Assembly (NCBI RefSeq): GCF_000284115.1
Contig: NC_017080.1
Coordinates: 300,001-332,000, forward strand
DNA from: Phycisphaera mikurensis NBRC 102666
GTDB lineage: Bacteria; Planctomycetota; Phycisphaerae; Phycisphaerales; Phycisphaeraceae
Reading direction: 5' to 3'
DNA length: 32,000 bases
The translations under genes were made by a program, and so were the position numbers. Below the pieces are notes generated by a model. The model saw only the letters and a program-made list of their open reading frames with translations, was not told the origin of the DNA and ran no database searches. Positions 696-10,564 of the stretch are shown in pieces (positions within the stretch are counted from its first letter, which is position 1; each line of letters begins with the position of its first letter).

Positions 696-1241
696 ATGAA
701 GTTCCACGACACCCCCCTCCAGGACGCCAAGCTCATCGAACTCGAGAAGCGAGGCGATGAACGCGGCTTCTTCGCCCGCGCCTTCTGCACGAAGGAGTTC
801 GCCGCCGCCGGCCTGCCCACCGCGTTCGTCCAGGTGAACAACTCGGACAGCGCCGACGCCGGCACCCTCCGCGGCATGCACTACCAGCTCGGCGACGACG
901 CCGAGACCAAGCTGGTCCGCTGCATCAAGGGCAGCCTCTGGGACTGCATCATCGACCTGCGGCCCGACTCGCCCACCTTCAAGAAGTGGTACGGCGTGGA
1001 GCTCTCCGCCGAGAACCGCCTGATGCTCGCCGTGCCCCGCGGCTTTGCCCACGGCTTCATCACGCTCGAGCCCAACACCGAGGCCTTCTACTTCGTCGAC
1101 AACTTCTACGCCCCCGACGCCGAGCGTGGCATCCGCCACGACGACCCGGAGTTCGGCATCCAGTGGCCCCGCGAGCCCGCCGTGCAGAGCGACAAGGACA
1201 AGTCCTGGCGCGACTTCGACCCCGCCTGGCACCTGAATTGA
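696..1241 (+). CDS. rfbC: dTDP-4-dehydrorhamnose 3,5-epimerase
   Basis: The 181-aa product carries the RmlC cupin signature (ERGFF.R.F..., GTLRGMHYQ, KLVRCIKGSLWDCIIDLR, VPRGFAHGF). Confidence 0.9.
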   Translation: MKFHDTPLQDAKLIELEKRGDERGFFARAFCTKEFAAAGLPTAFVQVNNSDSADAGTLRGMHYQLGDDAETKLVRCIKGSLWDCIIDLRPDSPTFKKWYGVELSAENRLMLAVPRGFAHGFITLEPNTEAFYFVDNFYAPDAERGIRHDDPEFGIQWPREPAVQSDKDKSWRDFDPAWHLN

Positions 1242-1295: not shown

Positions 1296-2540
1296 TCACC
1301 GCGGCTGGATCGCCGCCCGCTGCGGGTCGTACCGCACCTCGCCCAGCGTGCCCGCGATCAGCCGCTCCACCGCTTCCTCGATCAACGGGAGCGGGACCAG
1401 GAACCACTCGCGGGGCTCGACAGCCGAGCCGAAGCGGTCCTGGAGCTGCACGTCCAGCCGGGCCTCGGCGAAGAAGCCGTGCAGCAGGTGCTCGAGCTTG
1501 TGGCGGTGCAGGTTCGCCAGCTCCCATCCGGCGACCTGCTCCACGCCGGCCAGCAGGAACGTCGGGTCCTTGGCGGCGTTCGCCAGCCGCTTCTTCACGT
1601 CCCCGCCCGTGACCCCGATCTTGTGGAGCACCTCCCGGTGCTCCGCCACGAAGGGGTCGCTCGAGAGGCTGCGGACCACGTACACGCGGCCGCTGGCGAC
1701 GTCCCCGTCCGCGGCCTCGCCCGAGAGCACCGCCCCCCCCGGACCCCGCTCCTTGACGAACAGCGGCCCCGCATCGTCGTCGCGCGGCAGGATCCGCCGG
1801 CTCGCGTCGTCCTTGTTGAGCGCCCGCCGCAGCGAGCGCATCAGGAGGTCCGACTCGGTCGCGTTGTCGAACACCACGCGCAGCCGCCGGTCGTTCTCGC
1901 CGTGCTCGGCCTTGAAGACCGACCCCGCCGAAGCCACGCAGGCCTTGTGCCCGTCGAGGACGAACCAGTCGCCCACCGCGATCCCCTCCTCGTCGCGCCC
2001 GTCCTTGCGGAAGCGGGCGGTCCGCCGCTCGCCGGCGTCGAGCTCCGCCTGCACCGCGGCGAAGGCCCCCGCAAAAGCCCGCTCGAAATCCGCGCACGGC
2101 TTCCGCTTCGCCACCTCCTCGGGGCTCCTCCGCTCGGCGGCGAGGCGGACGTGCCGCATCGTGGAGACGTCGTCGGCTCCGCCGACGCCGAGCTCGTCGA
2201 GCGCTTGCTCGTCGGAGAGCCCGTCGGCCGCGCCGCCGCCCGCGGCATCCGGCCCCAGCAGCCCTCCGGCGTCCAGCGGCCCCAGCAACGCCCGGCACGC
2301 CGGCAGGCTCCGCATGCGGTCCAGCCGCACCGCGTAGAGCCGCTCGAAGATGTCGCGGTCGGCCCCGTGCCGCGGGGCCCGGCCGTGCTCGGCGGCGAAG
2401 CGCTGCACCTCCTCGAAGCCGGCGAGCATCCGCTCCTCCTCGGCCGTGTAGGCGCGTTCGGGCTCGGGCTCCGCGGAGACCCCCAGCTCCGCGAGCATCG
2501 CCGCGTCGTCATCGGTGAAGCCGGCGTCAGGCGGTGGCAC
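1296..2540 (-). CDS. GIY-YIG/T5orf172-domain nuclease-family protein with a roughly 270-aa N-terminal region of unknown function
   Basis: The C-terminal roughly 120 aa match the T5orf172/MUG113 pattern (GRVYVVRS..., HKIGVTGGDVKKRL, KLEHLLHGFF, PREWFLVPL). A GTG start at 2540 overlaps the helicase stop (2527-2529) by 14 nt. An alternative ATG lies at 2498. Confidence 0.7.
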   Translation of the reverse strand: MPPPDAGFTDDDAAMLAELGVSAEPEPERAYTAEEERMLAGFEEVQRFAAEHGRAPRHGADRDIFERLYAVRLDRMRSLPACRALLGPLDAGGLLGPDAAGGGAADGLSDEQALDELGVGGADDVSTMRHVRLAAERRSPEEVAKRKPCADFERAFAGAFAAVQAELDAGERRTARFRKDGRDEEGIAVGDWFVLDGHKACVASAGSVFKAEHGENDRRLRVVFDNATESDLLMRSLRRALNKDDASRRILPRDDDAGPLFVKERGPGGAVLSGEAADGDVASGRVYVVRSLSSDPFVAEHREVLHKIGVTGGDVKKRLANAAKDPTFLLAGVEQVAGWELANLHRHKLEHLLHGFFAEARLDVQLQDRFGSAVEPREWFLVPLPLIEEAVERLIAGTLGEVRYDPQRAAIQPR

Positions 2541-4515
2541 GGGCTCTCTCCCTCTGCAGCCGCGCCATGAACGCCACGCCCTCGGCCATCCGCCGCTCCC
2601 ACGGGTCCGGTGAGGTCGCCGACGGCGGCACGCCCCGCTGCTTCTTGAACGCGACCGCCCGCTGCATCAGCGCACGCGCCTCCTCCTCCGAGAGCGAGCT
2701 CTTCTTCGCCGTGATCGCCGCTTTCACCCGCGTGAGCGTCCCCTCGTTGAGGCTCTTGGCGAGCACCTCGTAGGCCTGCCGGAAGGGGTTGATGGCGTCC
2801 ACCAGGTCGATGTCCAGGTCCTTCACGTCCACCGCCAGCTTGCGGAGGCCGTCGATCAGCGCCGTGTTCGGCGTCTCTTCGCCGCTCGCTTCTCCAGCCG
2901 CCTGCCGCCCCCGCCGCTTGCCCTCCTGCAGCAGGTTCAGCGCCGCCACCGCCTGCTGCCGCACCGCCTCCTGGTCTCCCGCGTCCAGCTGCGGGTAGCG
3001 CTCGCGGACGATCTTGCCCTGCCGCAGCTGCGTGATCTCCTCGGGCACCAGCTCCTCGTCGAACATCCCGCGCTCCACGCTCTCTCTGTCCTGCACGAAG
3101 GCGGCGATCAGCTCGTGCACGTCCTCCCGGCACACCCGCTTGGCCTCCTTGGAGGCCGGCTCCTTGAGCCCGGCGATCTCAATCTGCACCGCCCCGGTGG
3201 TCGGGTCCACGCCGATGTTGTTGCCGCCCTCCGCGTAGCCGCGCTCGCCGTAATCCAGCCCGTCCACCGGCCCGCTGTTCTTGGGCCTGAACTCGAACTT
3301 CGGCGCCAGCACCTGCTCCATCAGCAGGCTCGCCGCGATCGCCTTGAGCGTGTCGTTGACCGCCTCGATCACCGCCACCTCGCTGGCGTCGGGCTCGGCG
3401 ATCAGGTTCGTGAAGCGGGCGCGGGCCTTGCCGGGGGCGTCGCGGGTGGCCCGCCCGATGATCTGCACCACCTCGGTCAGGCTCGCCCGGTACCCGATCG
3501 TCAGCACGTGCTCGCACCAGATCCAGTCGAAGCCCTCCTTGGCCATGCCCAGGGCGATGATGAGGTCCACGAAGTCGCGGTCTCGGATCCGCTCGCTCGC
3601 CAACGCCGCCGCCACGCGGTTGCGTCTGGCGGGGTCGTCGTCCACCAGGTCGGCCACGCGAAGCACCCGCCCGTCCGGCCGCTTCATGAGCAGGAAGCCG
3701 GTCGCGGGGTCGACGCCGTCGAATTCGCCCAGCTCCGAGAGGATGTGCTCCACCTCCTTGACCTTGTCGCCCATCGATTCCCGCGCGTTCACGTTGGGGA
3801 TGTGGACGATCGTCTTCTTGTCCGGGTCCAGCACCGCCGCCACGTCGTCCGCGTAGCGGCCGGTGTAGAAGCAGAACCCGATGTCCAGGTGCTTCAGGTG
3901 CGTGTACCCGGCGAGCTGCTCGTGGTACGTGTAGGTGACCGTTTCGAACCTCGCCTCATCCTCGGGCGTCAGCACCGCCGCCGCGTCCCCCCGGAAGTAA
4001 GAGCCCGTCATCGCGACGAGGTGGGCCTCGTCGCGCTCGATCAACGCCCGGACCTGCTCGCCCAGCCGGTTGTCCGGGCTCGCCGAGACGTGGTGGAACT
4101 CGTCCACCGCCACCAGCCGCCCGTCCAGCGCCTCCACCCCCAGCTTGTCGACCGCGAAGCGGAACGTCGCGTGCGTGCACACCAGCACCCGGTCCTCGCT
4201 GGCGAGGAACGCCCCGAACGCGTCGACCTTGCCCCCGCTGTCCTCCGGCCCCGGCGCGTCGCACAGGTTCCACCGCGGCCGCACCTCCCAGTCCGCGAAG
4301 AACCCATGCGCGGACAGCGGGACGGAGCCGAACGACGCCCCGATGTCCCGCGTGGGCACCAGCACGATCGCCTGCTTGAGCCCCTGCCGGTGCAGCTTGT
4401 CGAGCGCGACGAACATGAGCGCCCGGCTCTTGCCGCTGGCCGGCGGGCTCTTGATCAGGAGGTACGGCTCCCCGCGCCGCTGCCACACCTTCTCCTGCAT
4501 CGGCCGCATCCCCAT
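2527..4515 (-). CDS. SF2 DEAD/DEAH-box (Res/HsdR-like) helicase-ATPase with a roughly 250-aa C-terminal extension
   Basis: Walker A is SPPASGKS, motif II is VAVDEFHH and motif VI is QIIGRATR. I place the start at ATG 4515 (MGMRPMQEKVW...). The longer ORF reaching 4776 would run into the divergent gene and has no helicase-like sequence. Confidence 0.85.
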   Translation of the reverse strand: MGMRPMQEKVWQRRGEPYLLIKSPPASGKSRALMFVALDKLHRQGLKQAIVLVPTRDIGASFGSVPLSAHGFFADWEVRPRWNLCDAPGPEDSGGKVDAFGAFLASEDRVLVCTHATFRFAVDKLGVEALDGRLVAVDEFHHVSASPDNRLGEQVRALIERDEAHLVAMTGSYFRGDAAAVLTPEDEARFETVTYTYHEQLAGYTHLKHLDIGFCFYTGRYADDVAAVLDPDKKTIVHIPNVNARESMGDKVKEVEHILSELGEFDGVDPATGFLLMKRPDGRVLRVADLVDDDPARRNRVAAALASERIRDRDFVDLIIALGMAKEGFDWIWCEHVLTIGYRASLTEVVQIIGRATRDAPGKARARFTNLIAEPDASEVAVIEAVNDTLKAIAASLLMEQVLAPKFEFRPKNSGPVDGLDYGERGYAEGGNNIGVDPTTGAVQIEIAGLKEPASKEAKRVCREDVHELIAAFVQDRESVERGMFDEELVPEEITQLRQGKIVRERYPQLDAGDQEAVRQQAVAALNLLQEGKRRGRQAAGEASGEETPNTALIDGLRKLAVDVKDLDIDLVDAINPFRQAYEVLAKSLNEGTLTRVKAAITAKKSSLSEEEARALMQRAVAFKKQRGVPPSATSPDPWERRMAEGVAFMARLQRERARATA

Positions 4516-4657
4516 CGCGTTGGCCGCGGTCGTGGCCCCCGTGGCGGGGAAGGCGACGGAGACGGCGGGTTCGGGGTTTCGCGGGCTGATCAGATGAGCG
4601 TACCGACCGCTGTCAGGCGCCGGTCTCCACGGATCGGTAATAGATCGGACGTGATCC

Positions 4658-4686
4658 TTGACACGTCGGTCGGGCGATGTCAGGAT
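4658..4686 (+). promoter_or_regulatory. Putative sigma-70-type promoter (TTGACA, 17-nt spacer, CAGGAT) for the unknown/XRE-ImmA operon
   Basis: There is a perfect -35 hexamer at 4658-4663, a 17-nt spacer and a weak -10 at 4681-4686. The ATG at 4694 lies about 7 nt after the -10, which would imply a leaderless or near-leaderless mRNA. Confidence 0.3.
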
Positions 4687-4693
4687 CCTCTTC

Positions 4694-5410
4694 ATGGACC
4701 CGTTCGACCACCGCGATCCCCAACAAGTCCTCGAGACACTCGGCCCCACCGCCCCGATCGTGCTCCGCGAGGCCATGGACGCCGGCCTTCATCGCTACCG
4801 CTTCAGTCGTGAGAGGGATCCCGATGCGGCTCCTGACTACAGCGACGCGACGAGGGCGAACATGCTGGTCGACCGGATGTACCCGGTGATGTCCGCGCTG
4901 GTGGCGGTCGCCGATCCCGAAGGCCGGCACCTGTGCACCCACCGCACCGCCAACCAGCGGGCGTTGGAGCTCTACAGCGGCTTGTTCCTCATGGCGAAGC
5001 TCAAGAGGACCAAGGACCGGCTCCGGCAAGCCGATCCCGGCGAATTCCCGGAGCTGGAGGACGACGTGGACGTCGAACTCTTCGATCCCGGCATGCCGCA
5101 GAACGTGCCGACCGGCCGCGTGCTCCGGCAGCGGACACCCGGTGGCTTCCACGCCTACCGTCAGCTCCCGCTGGGCAACGTGCCGCCGGCGAGCATCCCC
5201 GACGACGGCCGCGACCGGCTCTGTCTGATCGCCGGCTTCGACCTGGACCTCGCCGAGGACCAGATCGAGCGGCCCCGGCTCGGGCTCTACGGCAGACGTG
5301 AGCCGATCTGGACCGTTCCGCTCCCAGAGTTGCCGGTCGACGCCATTGCAGCAATCCACCCCGCTTTGGCCGATCGGGTCGGTGAGCTGCGGCGCATGCG
5401 CGGCGCCTGA
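4694..5410 (+). CDS. Hypothetical protein (238 aa, no recognisable domain), first gene of the XRE-ImmA module
   Basis: The ORF has GC-rich third codon positions. It ends 21 nt before the same-strand XRE-ImmA gene. I saw no motif I can assign. The TTG at 4658 is an alternative start. Confidence 0.5.
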   Translation: MDPFDHRDPQQVLETLGPTAPIVLREAMDAGLHRYRFSRERDPDAAPDYSDATRANMLVDRMYPVMSALVAVADPEGRHLCTHRTANQRALELYSGLFLMAKLKRTKDRLRQADPGEFPELEDDVDVELFDPGMPQNVPTGRVLRQRTPGGFHAYRQLPLGNVPPASIPDDGRDRLCLIAGFDLDLAEDQIERPRLGLYGRREPIWTVPLPELPVDAIAAIHPALADRVGELRRMRGA

Positions 5411-5431
5411 CGCACCCCCGCCCCCGCGATC

Positions 5432-6598
5432 ATGAGCCCGCGTTCCCAAGGCCAGACCCCGGCGAGTCCCGGTCTCTCACCTGACGAGATGGAAGGCTTC
5501 AGCGGCTTCAACCCCGCCATGCTCACCGCTGCGCGGGAGGCGCAGCGCCTCACGCAGACGGCGCTGGCCCGTCTCCTCGGCGTGAGCCAGCCGCTGGTCG
5601 CCCGCTGGGAGGCCGCCGGGCACACCGAGGCGGGTGATCGGGAGCCGGACCTCGTCCAGCGGCGGGCGCTCGCCGAGGCGTTGCGGGTCCACCCCCGCCT
5701 CTTCGCCCAGCCCGGCAGCGCCGCCCGGGCCAGCGAGAGCGAGTACTTCCACCGAGCCTTCGCCAAAGCGCGTCGGACCGACGTGAAGGCCGCGCACGCC
5801 CGCTGCGGCCTCATCGAGCTGCAGGCCGACCGCCTGCTCGACCTTGAGGGAGCCCCCGAGGACCGGATCCCCGAGATCGACCCCGAGAACCACGCCGGCG
5901 ACGCCGAGAAGATCGCCGGCTGGGCCCGCACCCGCATGGGCCTGGCCCCCGGCCCGGTCGACAACCTCGTCCGGACCGTCGAGGACTGCGGCGGCCTGGT
6001 GATCGACCACGACCTGGAGATCGACAACGTCGACGCCCTGTGCCACTGGCGGCCCGGCCTCCCGAAGCTCTTCTTCCTGAACGGCAACCGGCCCGGCGAC
6101 CGGATGCGGCTGAGCCTCGCGCACGAGCTGGGCCACACCGTCATGCACCTGGGCCGCGACACGGAGTTGAAGCTGGCCGAGGAGCAGGCGCAGCGTTTCG
6201 CCGCTGCCTTCCTCCTGCCCTCCGCCGACTTCCGGCCGGACCTCACCTTCCGGCTGGACCTCTCGCGGCTGATGACGCTCAAGCGGAAGTGGCGGGTGTC
6301 GATGCAGGCGATCGCGTACCGAGCCCACCAGCTCGGCGCCATCGACCAGACCCGCTTCCGCTCGCTCTTCCAGCAGATCTCCCGCAAGGGCTGGCGGAAG
6401 ACCGAGCCGGTCGAGGTCCGGCGGGAGTCGCCGATGGCCTTCAAGCGGCTGCTGCGCGCCCACGTGGACGCCGGCTTCACCCGCGAGGATCTCGCCATGC
6501 TGCTGCTCGTGCCCCCGGCCCGGGTGGACGAGATGCTCGTGGACGCCTCCTCGCCCGACTGGGAGGATGGCGGCGTCCGGTTGCGGCTAGCACGCTGA
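5432..6598 (+). CDS. Fused XRE-family HTH regulator / ImmA-IrrE (M78, COG2856) zinc metallopeptidase
   Basis: The N-terminus has an HTH (LTQTALARLLGVSQPLVARWE). The central region has an HEXXH zinc motif (LAHELGHTVMH) followed by an AAAFLLP segment typical of ImmA/IrrE. Confidence 0.85.
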   Translation: MSPRSQGQTPASPGLSPDEMEGFSGFNPAMLTAAREAQRLTQTALARLLGVSQPLVARWEAAGHTEAGDREPDLVQRRALAEALRVHPRLFAQPGSAARASESEYFHRAFAKARRTDVKAAHARCGLIELQADRLLDLEGAPEDRIPEIDPENHAGDAEKIAGWARTRMGLAPGPVDNLVRTVEDCGGLVIDHDLEIDNVDALCHWRPGLPKLFFLNGNRPGDRMRLSLAHELGHTVMHLGRDTELKLAEEQAQRFAAAFLLPSADFRPDLTFRLDLSRLMTLKRKWRVSMQAIAYRAHQLGAIDQTRFRSLFQQISRKGWRKTEPVEVRRESPMAFKRLLRAHVDAGFTREDLAMLLLVPPARVDEMLVDASSPDWEDGGVRLRLAR

Positions 6599-6688
6599 AG
6601 CGCCGCGGACTGACGGCCCTGTGGGCGGAAAACGACGACGGTCCGCGGGATCGGATCACCTTCCAAGCCGATCCGGAGGCTTGAACCG

Positions 6689-6818
6689 TAGGGCAGGCTG
6701 GCCAGCCTGCCATTGTGCCCGGAGGGCACAAGCGTGGACGTGGTCCGGCCCGCGGCAAGGTCCGGCACTCGACGCTGCCGCCCCTTCGGGGCGGCACGGC
6801 AGGCAGGCCTGCCTGGCC
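6689..6818 (+). repeat. REP-like structured intergenic repeat, copy B
   Basis: It contains a perfect 20-nt palindrome GGCAGGCTGGCCAGCCTGCC (6692-6711), a hairpin TGCCGCCC/GGGCGGCA (6776-6796) and the palindrome CAGGCAGGCCTGCCTG (6800-6815). It matches copy A at 561-665. Confidence 0.6.
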
Positions 6819-9616
6819 TACGGGTTGGATTCCGCGGCGGTCATCTCGGTGTAGCGGGCGAAGAGGTGTTCGAGGCGTTCGGTGTCGTTGCGGAAGCGGC
6901 GGCCGAGGTAGATGCGTTCGAGGGTTTCGTCGTTGCGGTCGTGGGCTTGGCGGAGGTCGGGGTAGTCGCGGTCCATGGCCTCGGGGTCGTACATCTGCGC
7001 AATCGTCGCGGGCCAGTGGGCCTCGCGGGCGAGCAGGATGGCCTCGGCGCAAGCCGTGAGGTCGGCCTTGTTCTGCTCCGTCAGCTCGGGGACGGGGAAG
7101 GTGTTCCAGCCGAGGTCGTTCGAGTAGCGGTAGTCGATCTTGAACTTGCCTCCAATTGCTGCGACCCAGGCCAGGTGAAGGCGTGAATTGATGACGCTCA
7201 GCGCCCACGTTCCCGCGTCATGCAGCGCAAATGCTTGGCTGGAGACGACCGTCTTGGCGGGCAAGATTCCCGCGGGGATGTACTGCCTCTTCTCTGATGT
7301 ACTGATGGGAACGATGATGGTAGATTCCGTGGACGATACATGTTCGCGCATTTGGTGTGGACGCTTGGCGAGCTGCCGGTTGGAAGAGTCCTTGAACGCG
7401 AGCCGCTTCTTTCTGCAGAGCTCAATCCGTGATCCGATAGCTGAGCATGTGAGAGCATCCTCGAGATCAGCGTCGTCTACCCAGATCGAGTAGTTGACCA
7501 CGCCGCCATTGAACTCGTCCGATCCGTAGAAAGGACGCAGAAAGCCGTCGGCTGCGGCGTCTGCACTTATCACTTCGCGGCGGGATGCTGCGCTCACCCG
7601 CAGCGCTCTTCCATCGTTCGGCTTGTTGCCGAGAATCATCGTCGGAAGATCACTAGAAAGAGTATCGCTCCGGGCCGTGACTAATGGCGCATCGCCCGCG
7701 GTGAGATAGTGAGAGATCGCTTCGACGTGCCTTTCCTCGTCGTTATTGTAGAGGATGCACGGCGTGTCATCGTTGCTCGCAAGCCCCACGATGACGACGC
7801 TGACTGCGGCATTTCTGGCAGCCATGTTCGACCACCAGAAGCTCTCGTAAGCAAAATGAATCTTGACACCTTCGGCGAGCACGGCAGGCCACAGGTCGGC
7901 AGCTTGCCGTCCCATTACGACGGAGTTGGTTGAGACCAATGCAGCTGCCGAATCAACTCTGCGGCAGTAATCGGACGCCTTGATGAACCAAGCTCCGACT
8001 AGATCGATATAGCCAAAGTTTCGGATGCGGCCTTGGAAGATATTCCGAAGATCCTCGCGGTTGCTCGCGGAGAGCTTGCCCTTGCCCAGATACGGCGGAT
8101 TCCCGCAGATGTACGTCTCCCCGCCCTCGTTCTCGAAGTCGATCTCCCCGCCCTCGGCCCGCGACAGCAGGTCGGTCGGCGAAGCCGACGCCTCCTGCCC
8201 GCTCGGCGGGCAGACGCGCTGCCAGTCCAGCCGCAGCGCGTTCCCGTGGACGATCCAGTTCTCCTTGCCCAGGGGCAGGAAGTCGGCGAGGGCGAGCAGC
8301 TGGCCGCGGTGGAGGACGTCGGCCTGGTACTCGGCGATGATCAGCGCGAGGCGGGCGACCTCGGCGGCGAAGTGGCGGATCTCGATGCCGCGGAAGTTCG
8401 TGAGTGGGATCTCGCTTTGGCGCTCGGCTTCGCCGAGGTTTTCGTTGATCTTCGCCTCGATCTCGCGGAGCTGCTTGTAGGCGATGACGAGGAAGTTGCC
8501 GCTGCCGCAGGCGGGGTCGAAGACGCGGATCCGCGACAGCCGCTTGCGGAGCCACCGCAGCGCCTGCGGCCGGACCTTCGGCTCGGTCGCGTCCTTCAGC
8601 TTTTCGCGGAGCGAATCCAAAAAGAGCGGGTTGAGCACCTTCAGGATGTTGGGCACGCTGGTGTAGTGCATGCCCAGCCGGGCCCGGTCCTCCTCGCCGG
8701 CGACGGCCTGGATCATCGAGCCGAAGATGTCCGGGTTGATCTTGGTCCAGTCCAGCCCGCCGATGTGCAGGAGGTAGCTGCGGGCGGTCTGGCCGAAGCG
8801 GGGCACGGAGTCGGGGTCGCCGCCGCCGGCGAACAGGCCGCCGTTCACGTACGGGAAGCCCATGGCGTACGGCCGGACGCCGGCGGCCCGGCGGGCCTCG
8901 GCGTCCAGCGGAGAGTCCATCGCGAGGAAGCAGTTCGCCAGCACCTCGTGCACGTTGGAGCCGTCCCGCTCGCTCAGGGTGCGGACGGCGCCGGTGAACT
9001 GGTCGTCGCCGAAGATGCGGGTGTCCTCGGCGAAGAAGCAGAAGATCAGGCGGGCCATGAAGTGGTTCATGTCCTCGCGGCGGGCTTCCTCGCCCCAGTC
9101 GGGGTTCTCGCGCAGCAGCTCGACGTAGAGCTTGTTCAGCCGCCCGGTGGCCTTCACGTCGAAGGCGTTCTCGCGGATCGCCGGCACCGTGCGGATGCCC
9201 GCGAGCTCCAGGAAGAAGCCAAATCGCTCCGGCAGCTCCGCGAGCGGGCAGGCCAGGGTCTCGCCCGCGCCGTCCGGCGTGAGGCTTTCCGCTTCGACCG
9301 TCTCGCCGTCGGTGGCGAGCACGAACTTGCAGTTGCGCTTGGCCGTCTCGGGCGAGTCCAGCAGCTCCTGAAGCTTCTCCGCCGTCTCCCACGGCGCAGC
9401 CGTTGCGAGGTGGATGTTCTTGGTCTGCAGCACGCCGCCGGGCACGTCGCTGCGGTTGGTGGAGCTCTTGCCGCCGGCCCGCAGCCGGTCGATCGTGGTC
9501 CGCGGGTTGCCGAAGGCCTCCAGGAACTCGAACGGGAACGCCTCCGCGTCGAACCCCTCCGCGGCGATCCGCTCCACCAGCTGCTCGACGGCTTCCTCGA
9601 TCTCGACGGCGTTCAT
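6818..9616 (-). CDS. MmeI-family (Type IIL/IIG-like) N6-adenine DNA methyltransferase with TRD; N-terminal nuclease motif apparently degenerate
   Basis: It is collinear with my recollection of MmeI over the full length: LIFCFFAEDTRIF, FPYVNGGLF, LDWTKINPDIFGSMIQ, LGMHYTSVPNILKVLNPLFLD, VFDPACGSGNFLV (motif I), ICGNPPYLGKGK (motif IV), and C-terminal YRYSNDLGWNTFP and MYDPEAM. I place the start at ATG 9616 (932 aa); the upstream extension to 9895 overlaps glbO. Confidence 0.9.
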   Translation of the reverse strand: MNAVEIEEAVEQLVERIAAEGFDAEAFPFEFLEAFGNPRTTIDRLRAGGKSSTNRSDVPGGVLQTKNIHLATAAPWETAEKLQELLDSPETAKRNCKFVLATDGETVEAESLTPDGAGETLACPLAELPERFGFFLELAGIRTVPAIRENAFDVKATGRLNKLYVELLRENPDWGEEARREDMNHFMARLIFCFFAEDTRIFGDDQFTGAVRTLSERDGSNVHEVLANCFLAMDSPLDAEARRAAGVRPYAMGFPYVNGGLFAGGGDPDSVPRFGQTARSYLLHIGGLDWTKINPDIFGSMIQAVAGEEDRARLGMHYTSVPNILKVLNPLFLDSLREKLKDATEPKVRPQALRWLRKRLSRIRVFDPACGSGNFLVIAYKQLREIEAKINENLGEAERQSEIPLTNFRGIEIRHFAAEVARLALIIAEYQADVLHRGQLLALADFLPLGKENWIVHGNALRLDWQRVCPPSGQEASASPTDLLSRAEGGEIDFENEGGETYICGNPPYLGKGKLSASNREDLRNIFQGRIRNFGYIDLVGAWFIKASDYCRRVDSAAALVSTNSVVMGRQAADLWPAVLAEGVKIHFAYESFWWSNMAARNAAVSVVIVGLASNDDTPCILYNNDEERHVEAISHYLTAGDAPLVTARSDTLSSDLPTMILGNKPNDGRALRVSAASRREVISADAAADGFLRPFYGSDEFNGGVVNYSIWVDDADLEDALTCSAIGSRIELCRKKRLAFKDSSNRQLAKRPHQMREHVSSTESTIIVPISTSEKRQYIPAGILPAKTVVSSQAFALHDAGTWALSVINSRLHLAWVAAIGGKFKIDYRYSNDLGWNTFPVPELTEQNKADLTACAEAILLAREAHWPATIAQMYDPEAMDRDYPDLRQAHDRNDETLERIYLGRRFRNDTERLEHLFARYTEMTAAESNP

Positions 9617-9664: not shown

Positions 9665-10042
9665 ATGCCTCTGGGCGAAGCCGAAGTTTTCGACGCCCTG
9701 GGCCCCGGGGGCTTCGGCCCGCTGGTCGCGGCCTTCTACCGGCGCGTCCGCGCGGACGACCTGCTCGGGCCGATGTACCCGCCGGGCGAGTGGGCGCAGG
9801 CCGAGTGGCGGCTGAGGGCGTTCCTCGACCAACGCTTCGGCGGGCCGATGGCGTATTCCGAGCGGCGGGGCCACCCGCGCCTGCGGATGCGGCACGCGCC
9901 CTTCGCCATCGGCGAGCCCGAGCGGGACCGGTGGCTGGCGCTGATGGCGGCGGCCATGGAGGAGGTCGCCGTGAGCGACGCGGTGACGGAGGTTGTCGCG
10001 CCCTTCTTCCTGATGGTCGCCGAGGGCATGCGCAACCGGTGA
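9665..10042 (+). CDS. glbO: Group 2 truncated hemoglobin
   Basis: The block GHPRLRMRHAPF plus ERLR.FL.Q..GGP..YSE is, as I recall it, near-identical to mycobacterial GlbO. Confidence 0.85.
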   Translation: MPLGEAEVFDALGPGGFGPLVAAFYRRVRADDLLGPMYPPGEWAQAEWRLRAFLDQRFGGPMAYSERRGHPRLRMRHAPFAIGEPERDRWLALMAAAMEEVAVSDAVTEVVAPFFLMVAEGMRNR

Positions 10043-10069: not shown

Positions 10070-10564
10070 TCAGCCGTCGCCGGGGTAGGGCTTCAGCGGG
10101 CCGGAGGCCTCGGCCCCGGGGATGTCCAGGGTCGGAGCGTCGCCCCAGAGCATCTCCAGGTCGTAGTGGGCCCGCGTCTCCGGCTCGAAGAGGTGCACCA
10201 CCACGCCCACGAAGTCGGCGACGACCCACGTGGTCAGCTTGTCCTCCTCGCCGCCGTAGCGCTCGAAGCCCCGGTCTCTGCCGAGCTGCTGGAACTCGGC
10301 CGCGACCGTCCGCATCTGGCGGTCGGAGGTGCCGGTGGCGACCACCACGAAGTCGGTCAGCGCCGACTGCCCGCGCACGTCGAAGCAGATCACGTCCTCG
10401 CAGCGGCGGTCGTGGGCGAGCGTGGCGGCCTCGAGGGCGAAGGCCCGGGCTTCGGCGGTCTCCTCGTCGCTCCGCTTGAGGATCGGCTGCGGGTCGGAGG
10501 GGATCTCGTCGTCGGCCACGGCGGGGCCTTCCTCCGCGGCGGTGGTGAATCGGGGTGCGGGCAT
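10070..10564 (-). CDS. rsfS: Ribosome silencing factor RsfS (iojap family)
   Basis: It carries LTDFVVVATGTSDRQ, WVVADFVGVVVHLFEPETRAHYDLEMLW. Confidence 0.85.
   Translation of the reverse strand: MPAPRFTTAAEEGPAVADDEIPSDPQPILKRSDEETAEARAFALEAATLAHDRRCEDVICFDVRGQSALTDFVVVATGTSDRQMRTVAAEFQQLGRDRGFERYGGEEDKLTTWVVADFVGVVVHLFEPETRAHYDLEMLWGDAPTLDIPGAEASGPLKPYPGDG

Follow-up and report, generated by a model that had tools for sequence, protein, structure and literature searches.

How does an MmeI-like protein act when the nuclease domain at its N terminus no longer carries the residues that cut DNA, and what do the helicase and nuclease genes encoded nearby have to do with it? The question is raised by a 32,000-nucleotide stretch of the Phycisphaera mikurensis NBRC 102666 genome (contig NC_017080.1, positions 300,001 to 332,000 of the forward strand), which is here called the window and whose own numbering is used throughout. 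An initial annotation made from the sequence alone had claimed that the protein lost the catalytic glutamate of MmeI by a change to glutamine, with the Asp and Lys kept and the spacer shortened, and had linked this loss to the nearby helicase/nuclease pair. Here, we report that this view is partly supported: it is correct in outline, i.e., the PD-ExK motif is absent and the helicase/GIY-YIG pair is present, and its residue-level account fails. The locus probably belongs to the YeeA(DnmA)-YeeB-YeeC class, a three-gene, type I-like restriction/defence module in which the N-terminal domain does not cut and the partners would cut in trans. The features that the argument needs are the following.

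1296..2540, minus strand: YeeC-like GIY-YIG/T5orf172 nuclease, 414 aa (Pfam MUG113 6.3e-12, T5orf172 3.7e-9)
2527..4776, minus strand: YeeB-like SF2 (DEAD/DExH) helicase (Pfam DEAD 1.9e-6, YeeB identity, synteny)
4658..6598, plus strand: inserted cargo, two genes between the methyltransferase and helicase genes (PADLOC, Pfam)
4658-5410, plus strand: 250-aa hypothetical ORF of the cargo
5432-6598, plus strand: RmrA-like XRE-HTH/M78 peptidase of the cargo (PADLOC RmrA 4.7e-58; Pfam Peptidase_M78 and HTH_3)
6818..9616, minus strand: MmeI-like (YeeA/DnmA-type) gene, 932 aa, N6-adenine DNA methyltransferase fused to a target recognition domain (translation and Pfam)
7082..7690, minus strand: target recognition domain (Pfam MmeI_TRD, residues 643-845)
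7748..8572, minus strand: methyltransferase domain (Pfam MmeI_Mtase, residues 349-623)
9092..9616, minus strand: N-terminal domain, residues 1-175 (AlphaFold2, Foldseek, conservation)
9401..9436, minus strand: predicted beta-hairpin, residues 61-72, GVLQ-TKN-IHLAT (AlphaFold2 strands and global hhalign)

The methyltransferase, helicase and nuclease genes are all full-length and have their catalytic motifs. The MmeI-like gene starts with the ATG at 9616, and the MNAVEIEE N terminus of its product is common to 118 relatives; its methyltransferase domain has intact motifs I (FDPACGSGNF, residues 366-375, nt 8492-8521) and IV (NPPY, residues 506-509, nt 8090-8101). A local dip in GC (0.587 at 7001-8000) lies over the target recognition domain. 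The helicase translation contains PPASGKS, DEFHH and QIIGRATRD; its start codon is uncertain, either ATG 4776 or ATG 4695, with conservation setting in near residue 70, and its stop codon overlaps the nuclease gene by 14 nt.

All five Pfam MmeI domains match the 932-aa protein (MmeI_N 7.6e-30, MmeI_hel 1.3e-22, MmeI_Mtase 4.8e-102, MmeI_TRD 3.5e-66, and MmeI_C 1.9e-14, the last four all well over the Pfam cut-offs), so the claim that the MmeI scaffold is kept holds. These domains, together with the NPPY gamma-class N6-adenine methyltransferase motifs, are common to the window protein and canonical type IIL enzymes (MmeI, PDB 5HR4; DrdV, 7LO5): the helical spacer, the gamma-class methyltransferase and the recognition and C-terminal domains of a canonical MmeI are all present, but not the PD-(D/E)XK residues matching D70, E80, and K82. 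The MmeI_N match is carried mainly by residues ~92-169, the same residues to which local hhalign against the canonical enzymes was confined. Likewise, phmmer against MmeI 5HR4 (5e-116) starts only at residue 98, the phmmer search and a separate 79-sequence profile both make MmeI alignable only from window residue ~89-98 (MmeI 101-110), so that HMMER in either form begins at about residue 98-101, and tblastn matches against 22 canonical loci begin at residue 77-132. HMMER and BLAST gave no alignment of the first ~90 residues to MmeI, and phmmer with the N-terminal domain alone against the PDB did not match MmeI, its sole hit being a chance match with an E of 1.2.

Where, then, do the catalytic positions fall? 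The MmeI motif lies in VDLFWPGILLIEMK, and the spacing D70-X9-E80-X-K82 that the initial annotation gave agrees with PDB 5HR4 and PMC2731913. Translation also confirms the residues it pointed to, i.e., D57, Q64, T65, and K66 in the segment DVPGGVLQTK (nt 9448-9419, minus strand), and its anchor, FPFEFLEAFG here and FLIDFFEVFG in MmeI, was reproduced by MAFFT and hhalign. What does not hold is the pairing of Q64 with E80 and of K66 with K82. Global profile-profile hhalign, with no indel within the hairpin, gives G61 = D70, Q64 = W73, K66 = G75, A71 = E80, A73 = K82, and family G76 = G85, and the strands of the AlphaFold2 models fit this register. In the window model (N-terminal domain pLDDT 86.6), the strands are residues 61-64 and 68-72 with a turn at 65-67; in the canonical model, they are residues 61-68 and 72-76 with a turn at 69-71. 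From these alignments and models, the hairpin of residues 61-72 appears to be the counterpart of the MmeI beta2-beta3 hairpin bearing D70, E80, and K82; G61 and A71 are within it and A73 is just beyond the strand.

Because this ungapped register comes from hhalign and from two AlphaFold2 models, all three catalytic residues are absent, not the Glu alone, and the positions of D70, E80, and K82 are taken by the non-catalytic G61, A71, and A73. The distance between W73 and G85 in MmeI is the same as that between Q64 and position 76 in the window protein; since the hairpin is equally long in both groups, there is no shortened spacer. D70, E80, and K82 are essentially invariant in the canonical set (n = 121), and the window group (n = 118) has none of them. 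The hairpin has no conserved acidic residue or Lys, whether in the 118 close relatives or in the 90 cluster representatives, and in none of four alignments is E80 matched by an acidic residue or K82 by a Lys. On the Asp, the alignments disagree: two of them (MAFFT and narrow-profile hhalign) set D57 opposite D70, and the broader hhalign puts G61 there. The D57 register needs a gap of 3-4 residues inside the hairpin, and we rejected it in view of the broader profile, the equal hairpin length, the variants with W at position 64, and the AlphaFold2 strands.

It is therefore hardly credible that an intact MmeI-type PD-ExK site was killed recently by a single E-to-Q change at position 64, with Asp57 and Lys66 kept and the spacer shortened. 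D57, Q64, and K66 do exist, D57 can be aligned with D70 as just described, and Q64 is invariant in the 118 closest relatives; however, Q64 is the last residue of strand beta2 and K66 falls within the turn, the canonical ExK being on strand beta3, and neither is paired with its supposed counterpart in any computed alignment. Nor are the two residues kept across the family. Position 66 is N in 94/118 close relatives (80%) and K in only 9/90 cluster representatives, and position 64 in divergent members is W, L, H, R, or A, with W, the residue invariant in canonical enzymes as W73, in several of them. The pattern D-x(5-10)-[EQ]-x-K is found in 23% of shuffles of the N-terminal domain and is therefore statistically weightless. 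The divergence of the first ~90 residues is old and family-wide rather than recent, since the divergent version of the domain is common to 460 clusters at 50% identity (matches at E<=1e-10).

Structure comparison points the same way as the register. AlphaFold2 predicts no strand beta1 of the nuclease fold in the window domain, and Foldseek of the window model against the PDB found nothing at E<=1e-3, with DrdV only at rank 15, a result that is informative only beside the canonical control model, for which DrdV came first (E 1.9e-3), followed by HsdR and BpuSI. Taken on alignments and models, the N-terminal domain appears to be derived from the MmeI nuclease domain but to have diverged and lost catalysis.

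The domain has not been left to drift. It is under purifying selection and conserved like the methyltransferase domain (59% identity and 0.84 bits of column entropy versus 57% and 0.99 bits), whereas the target recognition domain varies more than any other part (42%, 1.70 bits). Since it is conserved to the level of the methyltransferase domain, the N-terminal domain is probably functional. Several polar residues are near-invariant in the 90 cluster representatives (H69 in 86, D103 in 85, N54 in 80, S56 in 80, D57 in 77, and E110 in 75), and D103 aligns with the invariant D115 of the canonical enzymes. These six residues, the match of D103 to D115, and the constraint on the whole domain would all suit an enzyme, a nuclease or another, with a rewired site that may work only together with the helicase. 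We regard this as improbable. A protein-protein interface would conserve polar residues equally well; S56 is replaced in some divergent members, and position 57 is K, T, or N in some; the Foldseek search gave no nuclease fold at its threshold; YeeA and MslORFHP expressed alone had no endonuclease activity (PMC2731913); and a dedicated GIY-YIG nuclease accompanies the protein in 62/63 relatives. Most plausibly, the N-terminal domain acts as an adaptor.

The partners are strictly associated with it. Among relatives with at least 6 kb of downstream flank (n = 63), the helicase gene is found in 63/63 and the GIY-YIG gene in 62/63, with order and strand conserved, versus 0/22 canonical MmeI-type loci for either gene, the canonical enzymes being single polypeptides. 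The suggested association of motif absence with a nearby helicase/GIY-YIG pair is thus borne out. Both window partners are homologous to the known ones over their full length: the helicase is 44% identical to YeeB of Vibrio crassostreae and 46% to that of Bacillus subtilis (E about 1e-177), and the nuclease is 34% and 30% identical to the respective YeeC proteins. NCBIfam assigned neither the helicase nor the GIY-YIG protein nor the 250-aa ORF to a family, and PADLOC gave the helicase marginal matches only (HamB at 0.003).

Between the methyltransferase and helicase genes lies a 2-kb gene pair on the opposite strand, which breaks their co-transcription and speaks against a working module, although many relatives show the same. 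We consider this cargo a candidate RosmerTA-like pair outside the core three-gene system. The pair is at the same position in 0/80 related loci, which hold only two weak RmrA-like matches elsewhere, and the same slot holds different cargo in relatives.

What is known of the class fits the locus closely. Morgan et al. (2009) described a second group of MmeI homologues, the YeeA/DnmA type, with YeeB/YeeC-like neighbors, and proposed an adaptor model (PMC2731913). Compared through the published description of this group 2 (PMC2731913; PMC7261158; PMC9973331), the window protein likewise is a full-length MmeI-like methyltransferase/recognition protein, similar to MmeI throughout except for the first ~100 residues and lacking the D70-X9-E80-X-K82 motif in its N-terminal domain, and its gene has a YeeB-like DEAD helicase gene and then a YeeC-like GIY-YIG/T5orf172 gene downstream, both on its own strand. 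It differs in the inserted 2-kb opposite-strand pair of the 250-aa ORF and the RmrA-like gene. The idea of a nuclease-less MmeI relative is therefore not new, because Morgan et al. reported the group, its neighbors, and two members without endonuclease activity; the PD-ExK loss and the helicase/GIY-YIG link have been in print since 2009 and were taken up again in 2020-2023. Our literature search for later functional or structural work on the YeeA-YeeB-YeeC class returned only PMC9973331 and a 2025 review.

The published functional results do not agree with each other: defence was absent in B. subtilis and present in V. crassostreae. In B. subtilis, deletion of dnmA, yeeB, or yeeC left plasmid transformation and three phages unaffected, m6A influences promoter activity, and the authors took the cluster for a relic and DnmA for an orphan methyltransferase (PMC7261158; PMC9973331); in V. 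crassostreae, yeeAB gives protection from some phages (bioRxiv 10.1101/2021.05.05.442762). The window protein could accordingly be an orphan methyltransferase for epigenetic regulation, beside helicase and GIY-YIG genes that are relics without restriction activity. Decay does occur among relatives, as two deletion fusions (P0357, P0312) and a locus with a helicase fragment only (L017) indicate. The window does not look like such a case, however: its three genes are full-length with catalytic motifs, synteny is almost without exception, and the helicase retains the long C-terminal part of V. crassostreae YeeB, which is missing from the shortened B. subtilis YeeB. Across phyla, moreover, the helicase is better conserved than the methyltransferase subunit (60-68% versus 52-61% identity), unlike a relic. 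With the V. crassostreae protection added, we find the orphan explanation unlikely for this locus, and a restriction/defence module of three working genes remains our preferred reading.

Such a module resembles Type I HsdM/HsdS/HsdR systems in that one component carries both modification and recognition, with the SF2 motor and the nuclease elsewhere, and in the variable cargo genes inside the operon; the region preceding the methyltransferase motifs also resembles the HsdM N terminus (Morgan 2009, PMC2731913). It differs from them in that the window protein has a fused single recognition domain and probably methylates one strand only, in that motor and nuclease come as distinct polypeptides, and in that the nuclease is GIY-YIG rather than PD-(D/E)XK. 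BREX PglX and DISARM DrmMI are also MmeI-related methyltransferases without a nuclease of their own and have helicase-containing partners. The PADLOC matches to them are weak (DrmMI 2.3e-33, residues 496-920; PglX 1.5e-8) and limited to the methyltransferase and C-terminal parts, unlike the best PADLOC model, REase_MTase_IIG, which matches over the full length (4.3e-255). We rejected BREX PglX on NCBIfam scores of 17-31 bits versus cut-offs of 400-900; the scanned window ORFs include no brx/pgl genes, the window has no partner genes of BREX or DISARM, and we rejected membership in either.

We propose the following mechanism. The 932-aa subunit would recognize an asymmetric DNA site through its fused target recognition domain and methylate an adenine there, consistent with its intact NPPY and FDPACGSGNF motifs. 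Its N-terminal domain, presumably derived from the PD-(D/E)XK nuclease domain of MmeI, should be unable to cut by that chemistry because it has Gly, Ala, and Ala at the positions of D70, E80, and K82. Unmodified DNA would instead be cut in trans by the SF2 helicase, as a YeeB-like translocase/motor, and the YeeC-like GIY-YIG/T5orf172 nuclease, with the N-terminal domain as an adaptor that may couple the site and its methylation status to both. A complex of the three proteins, the N-terminal domain as its adaptor, and restriction in the source organism are all inferred.

The window carries an intact locus of the YeeA-YeeB-YeeC class that resembles the one in V. crassostreae. The residue map of its N-terminal domain (G61/A71/A73 and the conserved H69/D103/E110) supplies mutagenesis targets for the adaptor idea. 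A further possibility, which we hold to be quite doubtful, is that the domain is a distinct module on the old nuclease scaffold, in which H69, D103, E110, N54, and S56 form a new catalytic or ligand-binding site, or a switch that passes methylation status from the methyltransferase to the helicase and the GIY-YIG nuclease. If that were true, it would establish by what route a type IIL enzyme became a multi-subunit, ATP-driven system.

The MmeI-like protein encoded in the window lacks a nuclease motif of its own, and its partners are a helicase and a GIY-YIG nuclease, as the initial annotation held; the motif loss is in fact more complete than was claimed there, because all three catalytic positions, and not a single Glu, are non-catalytic. 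The genes concerned are as follows.

9616..6818, minus strand: MmeI-like gene (932 amino acids, beginning MNAVEIEE)
4776..2527, minus strand: SF2 helicase, 749 amino acids (Pfam DEAD; motifs PPASGKS, DEFHH, and QIIGRATRD in the translation)
2540..1296, minus strand: GIY-YIG/T5orf172 protein, 414 amino acids (Pfam MUG113, 6.3e-12; T5orf172, 3.7e-9)
within 4658-6598, plus strand: 250-amino acid ORF matching no family, located between the methyltransferase gene and the helicase gene
within 4658-6598, plus strand: 388-amino acid XRE-HTH and M78 peptidase protein (PADLOC RmrA, 4.7e-58; NCBIfam spr1629 antitoxin below the cut-off)
696-1241, plus strand: rmlC (dTDP-4-dehydrorhamnose epimerase), island flank
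10070-10564, minus strand: rsfS (ribosomal silencing factor), island flank

An in-frame GTG lies upstream of the MmeI-like gene at 9895, but it is used by none of 118 relatives, all of which start at MNAVEIEE. All five MmeI domains were found by Pfam (MmeI_N, 7.6e-30; MmeI_hel; MmeI_Mtase, 4.8e-102; MmeI_TRD; MmeI_C), and methyltransferase motif I FDPACGSGNF (residues 366-375) and NPPY (residues 506-509) are both intact. Judged by identity to relatives and column entropy, the N-domain shows no sign of decay in sequence (59%, 0.84 bits) when set against the methyltransferase domain (57%, 0.99 bits) and the recognition domain (42%, 1.70 bits).

D70, E80, and K82, within VDLFWPGILLIEMK, are the putative catalytic residues of MmeI (Morgan et al., PMC2731913), and our reference (MmeI residues 1-205) matches PDB 5HR4 at 100%. 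The initial annotation gave these residues correctly and paired them by eye with D57, Q64, and K66, which together with T65 are indeed encoded at nt 9448-9419. This region proved difficult to align: phmmer of the window protein against MmeI begins only at residue 98 and leaves D57-K66 unaligned, a 79-sequence family profile (HMMER) begins only at MmeI residue 101, and the N-domain alone as HMMER query did not match MmeI. We then compared N-domains of 118 close relatives with those of 120 canonical MmeI-type proteins, i.e., those with the PD-ExK motif, plus MmeI itself. D70, E80, K82, W73, and G85 hardly vary in the canonical set; in the window set, those that are invariant or nearly so are N54, S56, D57, L63, Q64, N67, I68, H69, T102, D103, G104, and E110. 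Position 66 is mostly N (94), S (15), or R (4) in the 118, so K66 is peculiar to the window protein, Lys being found there in just nine of 90 wider cluster representatives. The latter were obtained by searching exhaustively with the N-domain in HMMER (955 representatives at E≤1e-3; 460 at E≤1e-10), and they carry Q (65), L (7), W (6), or R (3) at position 64; their best-kept polar residues are H69 (86/90) and D103 (85/90). There is a small chance that H69, D103, and E110 make up a rewired catalytic site.

D57 was placed opposite D70 both by MAFFT and by the first hhalign run, which were otherwise discordant, the counterparts of E80/K82 being H69/A71 and A71/A73, respectively. With the broader profile, local hhalign covered only residues 92-169, opposite MmeI 104-178 (probability 95%, E 3.9e-8); the global run gave G61=D70, Q64=W73, K66=G75, A71=E80, A73=K82, and, opposite G85, position 76, a Gly in the family. 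In divergent members, ...VLWRRNLHYKLAPKGK aligns ungapped with MmeI ...DLFWPGILLIEMKSRGK, the Trp and Gly-Lys coinciding and the Trp-to-Gly separation being 12 residues in both. Two alignments support the D57=D70 equivalence, and the best-supported one speaks against it. At the E80 position no alignment has an acidic residue, and at the K82 position none has a Lys; the proposed absence of a nuclease motif stands. The by-eye match itself has no statistical weight, since the pattern D-x(5-10)-[EQ]-x-K is present in 23% of N-domain shuffles.

AlphaFold2 modeled the window N-domain (pLDDT 86.6) with strands 61-64 and 68-72 joined by a three-residue turn (65-67), and a canonical domain 79% identical to MmeI (pLDDT 85.1) with strands 61-68 and 72-76 and turn 69-71. 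In the canonical model the Asp is within the first hairpin strand, the Glu on the second, and the Lys one residue past its end. Both models agree with the global hhalign register. Taken with the alignments, these strands put Q64 at the end of the first strand and K66 in the turn, with no shortened spacer; the pairing of Q64 with E80 and K66 with K82 is thus contradicted. Foldseek against the PDB matched the canonical model to restriction-enzyme nuclease domains at the top (DrdV, E 1.9e-3, probability 1.0; HsdR 3H1T; BpuSI), whereas the window model had no match at E≤1e-3, DrdV appearing first at rank 15 (E 0.28). Foldseek supports the view that the predicted fold itself has diverged. The window model also lacks a predicted counterpart of the first nuclease-fold strand (canonical 53-55).

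Two close relatives, P0013 (1155 amino acids) and P0070 (1118 amino acids), carry an extra N-terminal PF04480 (DUF559/Vsr-like endonuclease) before the non-catalytic MmeI_N; the nuclease-less scaffold seems to have acquired a nuclease domain of another kind by fusion.

The helicase and GIY-YIG genes both lie downstream of the MmeI-like gene on the same strand. Of the 80 genomic relatives surveyed, which are 52-61% identical and belong to many phyla, 63 had at least 6 kb downstream; the helicase is present in 63/63 and the GIY-YIG gene in 62/63, in the order and strand of the window. The survey also covered 80 metagenomic loci whose N-domain is canonical (D...ExK); the 22 of them with at least 5 kb downstream had neither gene (0/22 for each). 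The linkage suspected in the initial annotation is complete within our sample. Against YeeB and YeeC sequences machine-read from Fig. S5 of PMC9973331, and hence approximate, the window helicase is 44% (V. crassostreae) and 46% (B. subtilis) identical (E about 1e-177) and the nuclease 34% and 30%. The helicase alignment runs to the last residues of V. crassostreae YeeB, including a C-terminal part absent from B. subtilis YeeB; at 60-68% identity to relatives, the helicase is more conserved than the methyltransferase subunit. Its start is ambiguous (4515-4776, minus strand): conserved sequence begins at about residue 70 of the 749-amino acid ORF, which offers just two standard in-frame starts before that point, the ATGs at 4776 and 4695, and each of these overlaps the 5' end of a divergent plus-strand ORF starting at 4658.

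Two cluster representatives look like deletion fusions, pointing to decayed three-gene loci: a YeeA-type N-terminal part is joined to the GIY-YIG protein's C-terminal end in P0357 (352 amino acids; ...PKEWFLIPLP...) and to the middle of the helicase in P0312 (263 amino acids; ...VTYTYFEQLNGYEHLK...). Many of the database matches to the canonical MmeI N-domain (P0121-P0240) are proteins of 200-360 amino acids with MmeI_N and MmeI_hel only, some on contigs up to 711 kb; truncation or frameshifting of MmeI-type genes, and not cut-off at contig ends, may account for them.

The gap between the MmeI-like and helicase genes is bimodal in the 80 genomic loci (below ~110 bp in 28; 0.5-4.3 kb in ~43); long gaps hold variable cargo, namely a RhuM-like protein (seven loci), a DUF1016/YhcG-like PD-(D/E)XK protein (five), and two unknown families (six each). 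The site is a hot spot for cargo and in this recalls the operons of type I restriction-modification systems. In the window, the 250-amino acid ORF (putative toxin) and the RmrA-like gene are candidates for a RosmerTA-like toxin-antitoxin/defence pair lodged within the three-gene system. The island (~8.5 kb, 1296-9616) sits between the housekeeping genes rmlC and rsfS. Its GC content over the recognition-domain region (7001-8000) is 0.587 against ~0.72 elsewhere, which fits horizontal acquisition or recognition-domain exchange.

Nuclease-less MmeI relatives with such neighbors are not new. Morgan et al. (2009, PMC2731913) divided MmeI homologues into two groups, one with the PD-ExK motif and one without it, which resembles MmeI except over about the first 100 residues and "invariably" adjoins genes for a YeeB-like DEAD helicase and a YeeC-like GIY-YIG protein; endonuclease activity was absent from YeeA and MslORFHP, and the altered N-domain was proposed to contact the helicase and the nuclease as subunits of a type-I-like system. 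The gene cluster was upheld by a synteny survey (PMC9973331). YeeA, i.e., DnmA, is an m6A methyltransferase at GACGAG, with restriction not detected in B. subtilis (PMC7261158), where cluster deletions left three phages unaffected (PMC9973331); yeeAB protects Vibrio crassostreae against one phage subclade (bioRxiv 10.1101/2021.05.05.442762). The main rival reading, argued for B. subtilis, is that the methyltransferase is an orphan and its partner genes are relics; the intact motifs of the window genes and the strict synteny make this less probable here. The window locus is apparently an intact, uncharacterized member of the YeeA/DnmA-YeeB-YeeC class. For Phycisphaera mikurensis we infer an active complex, in which the MmeI-like subunit would use its recognition domain to read an asymmetric site and would methylate adenine, being incapable of cutting DNA by itself, the helicase and GIY-YIG nuclease would provide ATP-driven translocation and cut unmodified DNA, and the N-domain would act as the adaptor coupling them to the site-bound methyltransferase.
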